UHGV virus genome: UHGV-0133295
Source of the DNA: a virus
Reading direction: 5' to 3' (one strand)
Length of the DNA stretch: 30,956 bases
Shown here: one piece after another, positions 9,001 to 15,000 of the stretch
Position numbering within the stretch: the stretch's first letter is position 1
Layout: every line of letters starts with the position of its first letter
Made by a program: the position numbers

Positions 9001-12000
9001 GCCAAAACCTTTCCTATCAGTCAGCAATGACTGGGCACAATATCGCAGCACAACGTTTGGCTCTGGATCAGCAAGAGTTCGGGTTTAAGATGCAGCAAGC
9101 GCAGGAAAAGGCTCAGCAGTTGATTAGCGAAGCACCTAAGCTGTCAGTAAACATGGAAAAAGGCATCGAGACGGCTGTAAACAATGCCACAGCATCATCA
9201 AACTCAGCCAATTCTATGAGTGCGCTTGCTCAACAGTTCAGAGCAGAAAAACCAACGACAGGTTTGTTCGGTAACGCACAGAACATGTTCGCAAAACTTA
9301 CCGGAAGCGATACGACATTGCGTGATTTGCGCATTCGCCAAAATGCCCTTGTTAACAGTCAGGTTCTTAAATTCCTACCTCCCGGCCCCGCAACGGATAA
9401 AGACGTTGAGATCGTTCGTCAGGGTGCACCAACTGACATGGATAACCCTGAGACGGTCGCAAGATGGCTTGATGCTATGGCAAACCTTGAGCGACGAAAC
9501 GCGCAGTTTAATGAGTTTAAAGCCGAGTGGATGAGCGCGAATGGCAACCCTGGACAATCGCGTAATGGCGGTCAGATATTGGGGTTGGATGTTAAAAAAG
9601 GTGAATCATTGGGGAGTGCCGTTAAGCGGTATATGTCAATGAATACTGACGCAGCGCCAGCACAAGATTCGACACCTTCAGGAGAACCACGGAATCAGGT
9701 TGGATCATATACCTCAAAATCAGGCATTCAATTTACGGTGGAATGATGAAAGTAACTGCAAACGGTAAGACATTTACCTTTCCTGATGGTACGAGCACCG
9801 AAGATATTGGCACCGCCATTGATGAGTATTTTGCTGGTCAGGCTGTTCAGCAACAAACAGCTAATCAGGCCAATAATGCACCAACACGGGAAGAACCATC
9901 ATTGATGCAACAAGCTGGCGATTGGCTTACTGGTAGTCAAAGTGCAGGGCAAATTGCAGAACAGGCTGGTCGTGGTCTGGTAAACATACCATTTGACGTA
10001 TTGCAGGGCGGCGCAAGTCTGATTAATGCAATCAGTCAGGGGCTTGGTGGACCCAAGGTTTTGGATGATGTTTATCGTCCAGTAGACAGACCGACAGACC
10101 CCTACGCGCAAGCCGGTGAAACAATTGGTGGGTATTTAGTTCCAGGAGTTGGAACAGCAGGAAGCATGGCTATTGGATCACTGGCAGAGGCAGCAAATCA
10201 GAAAGGCGATTTCGCACAAAATGCAGCTAAAAATGCCGGAGTTAACCTTGCCGCTCAGGGTGTTCTTTCCGCAGCAGCAAAGGGAATAGGGCGTGGAATA
10301 ACGGCTATAAAAGGTGATATTGCGCCAGAAGTGGCGAAGAAAATTGCCACATCAGAATCTATGGGCGTGACACCAATGACATCTGATGTTATCCCGCCGA
10401 AAAATGCTTTCACTCGCGGCCTTACTCAGGATGCCGAGGGGGCTTTGCTCGGGACAGGCTCAAAGCGAGCGGAGCAATATGCAACGCGTAGTAAGCTGGT
10501 AAGCAATTATTTTGACCGTTTTGGTGAGTACAACCCTGATGACGTGGTGAAATCTCTGACCACCACGTTAAGGGGGCGGAAGGATGCCGCTGGCGCTGTT
10601 ATCAATGACGTCACCAATAAAATGGGTAATGCCGCAGTTGATACCACAAATACCATGAATGCTCTGAATACAGCGATCGCAAGACAGGAACGGCTTGGGA
10701 CGTCTGCCAATCAAAGCCTGCTTACATCCTTGCGTAACCTACGTGAAGAATTAGCAGACCCTGCAACTGATTTGGATGTTACGTTTGATCTCTTGCGTCA
10801 GCACAGAACAGCATTTAGATCTAATGTTCAGGGAGATGCTATGGTCTTCCCCAACCAGGCAAAAGCAGCTACCAATATGGTAGAGAATGCAATGTCAAAA
10901 GACCTTCGTAACGCAGTTGCTAAAAACCTCGGTGCATCAGACGCAGCAAAATACCTTAAAGCAAATTCCGATTATGCAAACGTTTATAATAAGGTGCTTA
11001 ATAAAAACATTGCTAACAAGCTCAACAAGGCAAGCAGTGAAGCCAGTCCTGAACTTATAAATACCGTTGTATTAAGCAGAAAACCATCTGACGTGAAACG
11101 AATCTGGAGCGCATTGGATGATAAAGGGAAAGATGCTATGCGTGCAGCTTACGTCAGCAAAATAGCGGAAAAGGCTGGTGACTCTCCAGCCAAGTTCATC
11201 ACTGAAGTTAATAAGCTGAAATCTCAGTCAGGCGGTGAAATTTACAACACTATTTTTTCTGGAAAGCACATGAAAGAGCTTGATGCTCTTCATGAAGTTC
11301 TACAGCAAACAGCAAGGTCAGACACCGCAAATGTAGTAACTCAGACGGGGCAATCGCAAGCCAACAGGATAAGGACGATTGGCGCAACTGCGACTCTTGG
11401 CGTATCAATGGGGCTTGAGGCTGGTTTCGGTGCAATGATGCGCTTGTATGAGTCCAAAGCAGCAAGGAATGCTCTCTTACGTTTGGCAAACACCAAAGCA
11501 GGAACGCCAGCCTATGAAAGAGCGTTGAGTAACGCTGCAAATGCCATCAGGCCGCTGCTTGCTACTGAGGCAACACAGCAGTAACGTATGGGGAATGGGA
11601 TTCAATCGTTAACATTTTCTTTTTACTTTTCCAACAAAAGCTTTGGTTGAATCCATATTCCCATAACCAGAAATGGTTTTCGACATTAAAACTGTTCCAT
11701 TAGGATGTATTACCCATGAGTCGATAACTCGTTGAGTTTCGCCATTCGCGCCGATTCCAATGATGGAGTTTTTAGACAATGCTTTGTAAGCCATGCCGCC
11801 CGCATCCGTCCCAGAATATGTGATACTGGCATCTTCACCGTTTGTCTTAATGATGAATGTTCCACTAAAACCATCTTCTTCCGGTTGAAAATTATTTCGT
11901 TCTGAATAGCTTATTCCGTGCATATCGCCAACGACCCAGCACTCTGCTGTAGCCCCAAAAGATATGAATAAGAACATAGCAGCAAGAACTTTCTTCACAC

Positions 12001-15000
12001 CAACCTCCTTAGTTTTGAGCAGGATACCATGAAAAAAGTAAACATCTTTTGCCTACTTCACATTTGAATGTTTTGTCATTAGGATGTTTCCGGTTTTTTA
12101 AATATGGAAATTGATATGAAGAGGATTATTAGCGTCGTTGCTGGCGCTATCATGTTATCTGGGTGCGCAACTATTGTTGGTGATGAAACGCAACTTGTGC
12201 AAGTGAACAGCAATCCTTCCGGTGCGAGCTTTAAGGTAAAAGACGAATCAGGCGTGATTGTTGCGCAAGGTAAGACCCCGCAAGGAGTAACTCTTGCCAA
12301 GTCAGATGGTAGTTATTTTGGCAAAAAGAGCTACCAGATCACTATGGAGAAGGATGGGTACGAACCAGTTACCCTGCCAATCAAAGCCAATGCTAATGGT
12401 TGGTATATTGGTGGAAACCTTGTGTTTGGTGGGTTAATTGGTTGGCTTGCTGTAGATCCATTTAATGGTGGGATGTATACCTTGAAGCCTAAAGAGGCAA
12501 ATGCATCCCTTATACCGTCCACAAAGCACGACTAATAAATGGAACCCACCATCAGGTGGGTTTTTTGTACAAATCCTTCAGCGTATCAAACACCATCTTC
12601 TTAACAAGTTCGGACTGCTCATCAGCGATGCGTTCCGCATCGTCTCGATAGCCTGAAATTTTGGATGGCTTTGATACAGCATCAGTCACTATCTGAACTA
12701 ATTCTGAATTAAGAGAGCGGCCATTGGATTTGGCTCGCTGTTTTAGTTTTTCCTTTAATTCGTAAGGTAGCCGCAGATTAAATTGCGGGTCATCTCTTCC
12801 CATTCTTGATGCCTCGCTTTTGTGAGTGGATCGGCATCTTATTATCTGCTGGTTGCATCCTCAATAAGACCACAGTGGTCTCTTTGTTTGATTAATAATA
12901 CATCACTGTGGCAATGCTGCGGCGATTCCTTGTATCTGGAGCAAATTAAATGACAGACATTACAGCCAATGTTGTAGTGAGTATGCCTTCGCAACTCTTC
13001 ACTATGGCGCGTTCTTTTAAAGCCGTAGCCAATGGCAAAATTTATATCGGTAAAATTGACACTGACCCGGTAAATCCTGAAAACCAGATTCAGGTTTATG
13101 TAGAGAACGAAGACGGTTCTCACATTCCTGTTTCGCAACCAATAATCATTAACGCTGCTGGATATCCGGTATATAACGGACAGATTGCCAAATTCGTAAC
13201 CGTGCAAGGCCATTCTATGGCTGTTTATGATGCGTATGGTACACAGCAGTTCTATTTTCCGAATGTGCTGAAGTATGATCCTGATCAGTTACGACAGCAA
13301 TTAGAAGACCCAGATGGAGCGAATAAATACCCAAAACTTCAGATAGCAAGATGGAGAGACAGTTATGATGTAAGAGGTTGGGGGGCTATTGGTGATGGTG
13401 TTCATGATGATACATCAGCTCTATCAGAATTACTTTCTGTTGCAACAGGTGGTGAAAAGATAGATGGGCGAGGGCTTACTTTTAAAGTATCAACTCTTCC
13501 AGATGTCAGTCGATTTAAAAATGCTCGTTTTTTATTTGAGAGAATACCGGGTCAGCCTCTTTTTTATGCTTCTGAAGATTTTATCCAAGGAGAGTTATTT
13601 AAAATTACAGATACACCGTGGTACAACGCCTGGACGCAGGATAAAACGTTTGTATATGACAATGTCATCTATGCGCCTTTTATGGCTGGAGACCGCCATG
13701 GTGTAAATAACCTCCATGTTGCATGGGTTCGCTCAGGAGATGACGGGAAGACCTGGACAACGCCGGAATGGCTTACAGATTTACATGAAAACTATCCCAC
13801 AGTTAACTATCACTGCATGAGTATGGGGGTTGTCAGAAATCGCCTTTTTGCTGTAATTGAGACGCGGACCGTGAGCGGAAATAAACTGCAGGTTGCAGAG
13901 TTGTGGGATCGCCCAATGAGTCGCAGCCTTCGCGTTTATGGTGGTATAACGAAAGCAGCAAATCAGCAAGTCGCTTATATTCGCATTACTGATCACGGAT
14001 TATTTGCTGGTGATTTTGTCAACTTCTCAAACTCTGGTGTTACAGGTGTTACCGGGAATATGACGGTGACTACTGTCATTGATAAAAATACTTTTACAGT
14101 TACGACGCAAAATACCCAGGATGTGGATCAGAATAACGAGGGTAGATACTGGAGTTTTGGTACATCATTTCACTCGTCACCATGGAGAAAAACCAGTCTT
14201 GGAACTATTCCTTCTTTTGTTGACGGAAGCACTCCTGTTACTGAGATTCACAGTTTTGCGACGATTAGCGATAACAGTTTTGCTGTTGGCTACCATAATG
14301 GTGATATTGATCCACGCGAGCTTGGGATACTCTATTTCTCTGATGCTTTCGGTTCTCCTGGTAGCTTTGTTCGCAGACGCATACCTGTAGAATATGAGGC
14401 GAATGCATCTGAGCCATGTGTAAAATATTATGATGGCATTCTGTATCTGACGACCAGGGGGACATTAAGTACTCAACCCGGTAGTTCATTGCACAGAAGC
14501 TCTGATTTAGGTACATCATGGAATTCTCTTCGCTTCCCAAATAATGTTCATCACTCAAACCTTCCTTTTGCCAAAGTTGGCGATGAGCTGATTATTTTTG
14601 GCAGTGAGCGCGCATTTGGTGAGTGGGAAGGAGGAGAACCTGATAACCGTTATGCAGGAAATTATCCAAGAACATTTATGACCAGAGTTAACGTCAATGA
14701 GTGGAGTCTGGATAATGTAGAGTGGGTTAATGTTACTGATCAGATTTATCAGGGCGGAATAGTTAACTCTGCGGTTGGTGTTGGTTCAGTTTGTATCAAA
14801 GACAACTGGCTGTACTACATTTTCGGTGGGGAAGACTTTCTAAACCCATGGAGCATAGGGGATAACAACAGAAAATATCCTTATGTTCACGATGGTCACC
14901 CGGCTGATTTGTATTGTTTCAGGGTGAAAATTAAACAGGAAGAATTTGTTTCAAGGGATTTTGTCTACGGAGCCACTCCTAACAGAACGCTTCCTACTTT

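Follow-up and report, generated by a model that had tools for sequence, protein, structure and literature searches.

The window analysed here, i.e. the 30,956-nt stretch of DNA that makes up the virus genome UHGV-0133295, contains an interval at 11609-12568, between a gp16 homolog and mnt, with two small open reading frames (ORFs), ORF-A and ORF-B, that are predicted to encode envelope proteins. We read this interval as two separate cassettes, one for a periplasmic exclusion factor resembling the Hex protein of phage 434 (ORF-A) and one for an outer-membrane-type lipoprotein (ORF-B), and we put the probability of this reading at roughly 60%. The arrangement is real but ordinary for a variable region that is already known, and it represents a new combination of known cassettes. 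The locus itself matters little, since shuffling of prophage-expressed genes was already known for this region and the window adds a further variant. What is new is the link of the protein family phrog_2651 to Hex, together with its predicted periplasmic location. A widespread family of “unknown function” is thereby tied to its sole member with a phenotype, the mechanism of Hex is now directly re-testable, and a candidate soluble counterpart to the exclusion protein SieA of P22 is at hand.

ORF-A occupies 11609-11998 on the minus strand and encodes a pre-protein of 129 amino acids (aa). It starts with a GTG, which lies 5 nt downstream of an AAGGAGG ribosome-binding site (reverse complement of 12004-12010). 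Positions 11400-13100 of the window are 100% identical to a prophage in the chromosome of Escherichia coli strain E1, a poultry isolate, for which the Prokaryotic Genome Annotation Pipeline (PGAP) has chosen an ATG 21 nt downstream of the GTG, resulting in 122 aa. We prefer the GTG because of the AAGGAGG site, because homologs have N-termini of the same length, and because the homology to phage epsilon34 breaks exactly at this codon, where this GTG and its ribosome-binding site serve an unrelated, hkcB-like gene (gp14) in epsilon34. The N-terminus, MKKVLAAMFLFISFGATA followed by EC, looks like a signal peptidase I signal. The predicted signal peptide comprises residues 1-18 (11945-11998, minus strand), with cleavage before Glu19, so that the predicted mature protein has 111 aa. 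Among close homologs, the signal segment is variable and the mature part is conserved. The GTG start and the secreted nature of the predicted protein, both proposed in the initial annotation, are thus supported by the ribosome-binding site and the signal-like N-terminus, respectively.

To which family ORF-A belongs became clear from a tblastn search of phage genomes. It matched, over its full length and with 29% identity, the product of a gene that closely follows the repressor gene in phages 434, lambda imm434, Sf6 (gp38), HK446, HK633, and Sf101. In the 434 record the gene product is named “repressor protection protein”, i.e. Hex. Pairwise BLASTP of ORF-A and 434 Hex gave 29% identity end to end (E = 2e-15), and both proteins extend over nearly all of the 117 positions of phrog_2651, which is labelled as unknown function in PHROGs (ORF-A, 1-116, E = 2e-61; 434 Hex, 2-117, E = 1e-58). 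ORF-A therefore shows the full-length similarity expected of a Hex-family member. An exhaustive profile search retrieved 125 Hex-family clusters at 50% identity, and a further word-indexed homolog search run with the profile added almost no new members. Searches of Pfam, NCBIfam, and PADLOC with ORF-A returned nothing usable, the PADLOC models matched neither ORF-A nor ORF-B nor Mnt, and profile searches of the Protein Data Bank (PDB) sequences found no relative of either family.

The genomic positions of the two proteins differ. The PRM transcript of 434 carries hex directly after cI, in the rexAB slot, whereas ORF-A occupies the sieA slot beside gene 16, at a large distance from any repressor gene. 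Both are prophage-borne, and Hex is expressed in the lysogen. The position downstream of cI is a trait of the 434-type locus and not of the Hex protein family.

Export signals and cysteine counts were determined for an alignment of 93 Hex-family members. All 93 have an N-terminal segment of 16 to 27 residues with a hydrophobic core; the first eight residues carry a net positive charge in 87 of them, and 85 have A, S, G, or T at position -1. A cysteine two residues into the mature protein is invariant (93/93), and a second cysteine is found within the last eight residues in 89 members. The total number of cysteines is 2, 4, or 6, and thus even, in every one of the 93 proteins. In ORF-A the conserved residues are Cys20 and Cys129. 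434 Hex and Sf6 gp38 (2501-2905 of both locus extracts) have a clear signal-peptide-like N-terminus, MIRIAALLSILLTTSANS followed by ECW, and, with HK446, HK633, and Sf101, share with ORF-A the phrog_2651 assignment, the signal peptide, the ECW motif, and the C-terminal cysteine. Judged by these features, the whole Hex family looks exported.

The AlphaFold model of ORF-A is a small, eight-stranded beta-barrel with inner strands of 5-9 residues. A very unlikely alternative is that ORF-A is an integral eight-stranded barrel of the outer membrane, of the Lom/Ail/PagP/NspA kind. The number of strands is that of such proteins, but the mature part has just 111 aa and short inner strands, it is hydrophilic (grand average of hydropathy, GRAVY, -0.35), it contains the paired conserved cysteines, and it ends with KRKC instead of an aromatic residue. 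In addition, soluble barrels (NHBA, Cap15) score equally well. Foldseek comparison with the PDB returned generic folds only (E >= 0.006).

The phenotype of Hex is heterologous exclusion: Salmonella carrying lambda imm434 excludes P22, and a strain with a hex- prophage does not (PMC3564112). Hex is made from the PRM transcript in lysogens, and the full-length protein is lethal when overproduced (PMC3564112). The same study proposed that Hex blocks RecA-stimulated repressor cleavage in the cytoplasm (PMC3564112). Transferred to ORF-A, this would mean a role in the cytoplasm, where the protein shields the prophage repressor from RecA-stimulated autocleavage and so stabilises lysogeny. Several results speak for it: induction of hex- lysogens is 30-fold higher and recA-dependent, a Hex fragment blocks the cleavage of the 434 and P22 repressors in vitro (PMC3564112), and ORF-A is a full-length member of the family. 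We nevertheless regard it as unlikely. An export signal and an even number of cysteines in 93 of 93 members do not fit a cytoplasmic role, and ORF-A is present in the window without linkage to a repressor gene. In the published fragment, “sHex”, the first residue is E43 of a reading frame of 158 aa, i.e. the start of ECWIV, which is exactly the predicted mature N-terminus. It comprises only the first 61 residues of the predicted eight-stranded barrel, about half a barrel, and it was recovered by refolding from a guanidine-solubilised pellet (PMC3564112). A signal peptide or export was not considered in that paper (PMC3564112). Export signal, even cysteine numbers, and predicted barrel all fit a periplasmic protein rather than a cytoplasmic RecA antagonist. 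Taken together with the half-barrel nature of sHex, its start at the predicted cleavage site, and its origin from a pellet, they make it more likely, we infer, that the exclusion phenotype of Hex reflects an envelope function.

On the periplasmic reading, ORF-A would be exported, cleaved after Ala18, and folded in the periplasm as a 111-aa beta-barrel that is closed by a disulfide. In a lysogen it would then act in soluble form in the envelope and keep other, heteroimmune phages from infecting, and, as a guess, the blocked step might be the delivery of DNA across the periplasm. Exclusion is the most plausible role for ORF-A; the phenotypes on record, P22 exclusion and lysogen stability, are those of Hex. 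It is quite unlikely that the protein instead acts in the periplasm as an inhibitor of the cell-wall hydrolase of an incoming phage, in the manner of T4 Sp or of the lysozyme inhibitors PliC/MliC.

The location of ORF-A is compatible with exclusion. In P22, sieA has the same strand as ORF-A and lies 22 nt from the end of gene 16, and the respective distance between ORF-A and the gp16 homolog is 24 nt. ORF-A also follows the positional rule for SieA, i.e. a location between the homologs of gene 16 and gene 9 (PMC10883804). The placement of both ORFs in the sieA slot between gp16 and mnt, as originally described, was thereby confirmed. SieA is likewise expressed from the prophage and acts at the envelope against P22-like phages. 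In contrast to ORF-A, a predicted soluble periplasmic barrel, SieA is a protein of the inner membrane with three helices and without a signal peptide, and the two share no similarity. ORF-A was considered as a SieA homolog and rejected (BLASTP E = 1.7; an N-terminal signal only, not three transmembrane helices). The 161-aa upstream ORF of Salmonella prophages was also considered as a SieA homolog and rejected.

ORF-B (12116-12535, plus strand; phrog_6823) encodes a 139-aa lipoprotein with the lipobox MLSG/C17 and an alanine at position +2. A lipobox-like motif with the invariant cysteine is present in 58 of 58 homologs, mostly as LSGC or LTGC, and all 58 have alanine at +2. ORF-B thus has the lipobox at the end of a signal peptide that characterises bacterial lipoproteins, in agreement with its original assignment. 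According to the +2 rule (no Asp, Lol sorting), the sequence predicts a lipid-modified lipoprotein of the outer membrane; a hydrophobic helix at residues 95-112 could complicate the sorting. In the AlphaFold model (mean pLDDT, the per-residue confidence score, of 79.5), this conserved, Gly-rich helix has low confidence, while a PEGA-like beta-sandwich (residues 25-93) and a beta-hairpin (121-131) are confident. The best-conserved parts are KSDGSYFGKK and ANGWYIGGN..FGGLIGW..VDPFNGGMYTL.

The PEGA domain (PF08308) scored 17.6 bits with ORF-B, below the gathering cut-off of 20.8, and 10 of the 58 homologs matched it at E <= 0.01. The only other domain match in Pfam, NCBIfam, and PADLOC was LEPBI_I2678, and Foldseek against the PDB returned generic Ig-like sandwiches (E >= 0.018). 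The combination of lipid anchor, beta-sandwich, and Gly-rich hydrophobic helix presumably resembles SlyB or TraT, a likeness that the Foldseek matches in the PDB do not support. An assignment as a Cor or Llp lipoprotein was rejected, as the PHROG and NCBIfam Cor matches are confined to the signal peptide (residues 1-20 and 1-30). ORF-B showed no homology to Bor, TraT, or Lom, and a literature search with PEGA lipoproteins in prophages, the LF82 locus tags, and the WP accession found no functional study.

A word-indexed search yielded 715 homologs of ORF-B, mostly from Enterobacterales. In siphovirus prophages of E. coli and Proteus they are located between the tail chaperone and tape-measure genes, and in a Pseudescherichia prophage between the I and J homologs. 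In two of three siphovirus cases tested (Proteus and Pseudescherichia) the homolog has its own terminator, and the Proteus gene also has a promoter-like site. Some family members are found in chromosomal contexts outside prophages. By this distribution, ORF-B behaves as a mobile moron without a link to any single receptor type, and the family constitutes a highly mobile lipoprotein cassette that many Enterobacterales carry in their podovirus and siphovirus prophages. HK97 gp15, Cor (phi80, N15), T5 Llp, TraT, and lambda Bor are likewise small envelope proteins of prophages or plasmids that are encoded in late or tail operons, but they have no homology to ORF-B, which differs from them in not being bound to one receptor type. 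HK97 gp15 is also encoded between the tail chaperone and tape-measure genes, as are the homologs of E. coli and Proteus. The E. coli lambdoid prophage with an ORF-B homolog also has a Porin_1 gene (10261-11424 of both locus extracts) between the M and L tail genes, i.e. two envelope morons in one tail operon.

Upstream of ORF-B lies a putative sigma-70-like promoter (12057-12085, plus strand; TTCACA, 17-nt spacer, TAGGAT). The upstream DNA of the prophage Gally, which is otherwise diverged, has kept TTCACG-17-TAAGAT at this position, and the conservation of hexamers and spacing supports a real promoter. ORF-B is a candidate for an autonomous transcription unit of the moron kind, with a promoter-like site conserved in Gally and a terminator hairpin (see below); ORF-A has no terminator and no established promoter.

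The Gally ortholog of ORF-B, GALLYPH_14, is transcribed in the LF82(Gally) lysogen (PMC9928086 S1 Table). The values, as log2 of fragments per kilobase per million (fpkm), are 4.8-6.2 in lysogeny broth (LB), 9.8-10.5 in the B1 and B6 samples, 11.0 in macrophages after 1 h, and 9.4-9.5 after 6 h (PMC9928086 S1 Table). B1 and B6 were taken to be Dulbecco's modified Eagle's medium (DMEM) because the caption of the table names only LB, DMEM, and macrophage conditions. For comparison, the background of the Gally prophage is about 3.5, and the C2 repressor has values of 9-12 across conditions and of 10.5-12 in the B1/B6 and macrophage samples (PMC9928086). GALLYPH_14 is thus about 20- to 45-fold higher in the B1/B6 and macrophage samples than in LB, and the divergent Gally lipoprotein gene is also raised (PMC9928086 S1 Table). 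Host-like conditions thus place the ORF-B cassette in the group of prophage genes with the highest transcription, and it is a reasonable target for a single-gene phenotype screen. Gally mnt and the Gally tailspike gene also rise together in macrophages.

We propose that ORF-B would be transcribed from its own sigma-70 promoter up to a terminator that it shares with the convergent mnt, and that antiterminated late transcription might also read through it. It would act as a prophage-expressed modifier of the envelope, either for phage exclusion or for host fitness. In a broader form of the latter, ORF-B, and possibly ORF-A, would be conversion genes for fitness or virulence of the Bor/Lom/TraT type that aid the bacterium in an animal host. 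The induction of GALLYPH_14 in B1/B6 and macrophages points in this direction, as do the occurrence of the family in phages with unrelated tails and receptors and in non-prophage chromosomal contexts, and its presence in avian pathogenic (APEC), adherent-invasive (AIEC), and O111 enterohaemorrhagic (EHEC) strains. In contrast, deletion of Gally left the survival of LF82 in macrophages unchanged (PMC9928086), and ORF-B has neither homology to Bor, TraT, or Lom nor Cor matches beyond the lipoprotein signal peptide. On balance, we consider host fitness a possible role, without favouring it.

ORF-B is followed by a terminator hairpin with a T6 tail at 12541-12566 (arms 12541-12550 and 12555-12564, loop ATCA at 12551-12554, T run 12561-12566), which overlaps the end of mnt. 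The mnt gene (12552-12803, minus strand) encodes an Arc/Mnt-family repressor of 83 aa (Pfam Arc, 2.8e-22; Repressor_Mnt, 2.2e-18) and ends with AAA AAA CCC ACC TGA. The 3′ arm and the T run are built from the final four mnt codons (KKPT), and the stop codon TGA, the reverse complement of 12552-12554, is situated inside the loop. The overlap that the initial annotation had pointed out is therefore confirmed. The folding energy is about -15 kcal/mol (z = -2.3 versus shuffles), and with six G-C pairs within a stem of 8-10 pairs and a 4-nt loop, the structure has the characteristics of an intrinsic terminator. A pattern scan gave only the minus-strand reading of the hairpin; the plus-strand version was probably missed because the maximal stem with G-T pairs absorbs four of the six T.

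The hairpin is conserved in P22, HK620, 933W, epsilon34, and Gally, showing that it is not a chance feature. Variation between the phages is too limited for a covariation check, and the P22 and 933W versions differ by a mismatch or by a G-U pair, so that it is conservation and prior annotation, not covariation, that support the structure. In the epsilon34 record, the same hairpin is annotated as a Rho-independent terminator overlapping mnt. HK620 has lost mnt and has kept the hairpin, annotated as “terminator associated with remnant of P22 mnt gene; tMNT”. The tMNT of HK620/P22 and the epsilon34 terminator have the same hairpin, the flanking 21 nt, and the same position at the 3′ end of mnt. 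Mnt has KKPT instead of KKTT as its last residues in the window, epsilon34, and Gally, which makes the stem a perfect CCCACC/GGTGGG, and the hairpin is used there by a convergent lipoprotein gene as well. From 12543, the foot of the hairpin, the window is homologous to P22, ST160, and related phages, and 933W-type Stx phages have the same 56 nt in an unrelated context. The start of homology at this point and the retention in HK620 indicate that the hairpin moves together with the mnt 3′ end and does not belong to the lipoprotein cassette. The original attribution of the terminator to the lipoprotein gene thus does not hold; the element had already been annotated, and it is a shared and probably bidirectional terminator.

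The two ORFs had also been described as a divergent pair, which implied a unit. They are separated by a control region of 117 bp (11999-12115), which is AT-rich (32.5% GC). Overlapping it, a 34-nt start module (11996-12029, minus strand) contains the GTG of ORF-A, the AAGGAGG (12004-12010), and an extended -10-like TGgTATCCT (12021-12029), and this module is the overlap of the epsilon34-type and the Emek-type homology blocks. The weak -10-like site might be the promoter of ORF-A. Five boundaries of homology were mapped: the homology to epsilon34 starts at 11996 and ends at 12650, that to Emek ends at 12029, that to Gally and vB_EcoP-720R6 starts at 12106, and the P22-type mnt module starts at 12543. 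Epsilon34 has the whole control region in common with the window. The ORF-B orthologs of epsilon34 (gp15, 98.6% identity), Gally, and vB_EcoP-720R6 (97-98% each) have the same terminator and the same convergent mnt, and the leftward partner is hkcB in epsilon34, a 161-aa lipoprotein in Gally, and ORF-A in the window. Conversely, ORF-A has counterparts with 93-94% identity in Emek (orf129, 94%) and in Salmonella ST-35. In a Salmonella P22-like prophage, a Hex-like gene is located in the middle of a three-gene operon beside gene 16 (3482-4700 of the locus extract), between genes for a 161-aa lipoprotein (phrog_6067, the family of GALLYPH_13) and a 99-aa signal-peptide protein (phrog_19844), both families of unassigned function, and ORF-B is absent.

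Carriage was counted in 5426 complete E. coli genomes, based on intact copies with 95-100% identity. ORF-A is present in 147 genomes, the present allele of ORF-B in 124, and the arrangement with both in 45. The differing partners and the small number of shared carriers show that ORF-A and ORF-B are independent cassettes and not a unit.

The gene sets between gene 16 and mnt or the tailspike gene differ among P22, HK620, epsilon34, Gally, Emek, and Salmonella prophages, i.e. genes are present or absent at the same position in syntenic relatives, as is typical of morons. The base composition also deviates: the GC content is 40.3% for ORF-A and 32.5% for the control region, compared with 48.4% for the virion genes, and the difference is mild for ORF-B (45.2%). 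Other occupants of the slot are hkcB (epsilon34, HK620), the 161-aa lipoprotein (Gally), and the exported-protein operon of the Salmonella prophages. Most of them are envelope-targeted, the exception being hkcB, which has no export signal or informative domain. The gene 16-to-tailspike interval was named the “ant moron” in the epsilon34 genome paper, which described it as fast-changing, distinguished ten types in sixteen P22-like genomes, and gave epsilon34 genes 14 and 15 as unknown function (PMC2629481). This rapid flux (PMC2629481), together with some frameshifted or truncated copies (P0132, P0135), could indicate that ORF-A and ORF-B are silent cargo or decaying remnants. This is highly improbable in view of the numerous intact copies in E. 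coli genomes, the conservation of mature parts next to variable signal peptides, the strong transcription of the ORF-B ortholog, and the depth of both families (125 clusters at 50% identity and 715 matches, respectively).

Several points weigh against the two-cassette reading with its proposed roles. The roles of ORF-A and ORF-B are candidates drawn from sequence, and export, localisation, and any function are predictions. The signal peptides of both proteins were called with heuristics, and the cleavage site was deduced from them. For ORF-A, the promoter candidate is a weak -10-like site, and no promoter is established in the present arrangement. The one paper with biochemical work on Hex puts forward a role in the cytoplasm (PMC3564112). 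The occurrence of ORF-B homologs in phages with unrelated receptor specificities and outside prophages argues against receptor-specific exclusion. Lastly, the LF82 authors scored Gally as being without morons in LB, where GALLYPH_13 and GALLYPH_14 were 4.5-fold and 3.3-fold above background, below their cut-off of 5-fold, and the Gally deletion had no effect in macrophages (PMC9928086). The initial proposal that both genes are prophage-expressed candidates for lysogenic conversion or exclusion is therefore retained in part: it gains from the transcription of GALLYPH_14 (98% identical) in the lysogen and from the membership of ORF-A in the 434 Hex family, and function remains predicted.

A more far-reaching version would unite these elements. 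Hex-family proteins, including 434 Hex and Sf6 gp38, would be secreted periplasmic barrels closed by disulfides, forming a soluble class of exclusion proteins that act on DNA delivery across the envelope. The RecA-antagonist mechanism would be indirect or an artefact of the half barrel, ORF-A would replace SieA in the sieA slot, and ORF-B would add a second layer of the same barrier at the outer membrane. As a whole, this scheme is doubtful.

The prophage context was derived from the neighbouring genes. In the PGAP annotation of E1, the genes are arranged as in P22-like phages (Lederbergvirus), with portal, coat, gp4, and gp10 followed by three ejection proteins, the ORF-A/ORF-B interval, mnt, and tailspike. 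In the window, the gp16 homolog (9743-11584) precedes the two ORFs, and the product of the tailspike gene (12950-15895) combines a head-binding domain of the P22 type with an endosialidase (End_beta_propel, 8e-233; End_tail_spike; Peptidase_S74 chaperone), which indicates that the prophage targets the K1 polysialic acid capsule. Together with a heptanucleotide repeat and a hexapeptide acyltransferase gene further downstream, the endosialidase tailspike identifies a CUS-3-like phage of K1-capsulated E. coli. The variable “ant/immI moron” region of this CUS-3-like, K1-specific, P22-like prophage has the interval with ORF-A and ORF-B as its left part. Scans of the window with Rfam models and for tRNAs gave no matches.

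The mnt gene is an orphan in this prophage, as arc, ant, and sar are absent. Between mnt and the start of the tailspike gene (12804-12949), a palindrome, AGACCACAGTGGTCT (12867-12881), was flagged as terminator-like; we take it to resemble an Mnt operator. A remnant of Pant may read straight into the tailspike gene under the control of Mnt.

The heptanucleotide repeat is a perfect array of TCAAGAC x 8.3 (16052-16109) within a short ORF that runs from 16049 to 16165. The hexapeptide acyltransferase ORF (16420-16755) comes next, the whole region spanning 16049-16755. Array and acyltransferase presumably correspond to neuO, the phase-variable K1 capsule O-acetyltransferase gene of CUS-3, and the neuO-like gene looks out of frame, and thus switched off, in the window. 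In the otherwise identical E1 prophage, the acyltransferase ORF is 21 nt further from the tailspike gene, which fits three extra repeats.

Downstream of the prophage, the window contains a second phage-like element (21265-29380), with a major capsid protein E homolog (24077-25105), a Dit-like tail protein (27281-27964), a tyrosine integrase (28046-29380, minus strand), and a helix-turn-helix protein. At the corresponding place the E1 genome has the vat island, showing that the window is derived from a different strain. An AT-rich stretch at 18100-20200 has several direct-repeat arrays, i.e. units of 10 to 30 nt (18233-18295), a 35-nt unit x 1.9 (19427-19493), and the 22-nt unit TAGGTCACTATGAACTAGGGGG x 3.8 (19549-19632). 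These arrays look like iterons or clusters of binding sites of the neighbouring element.

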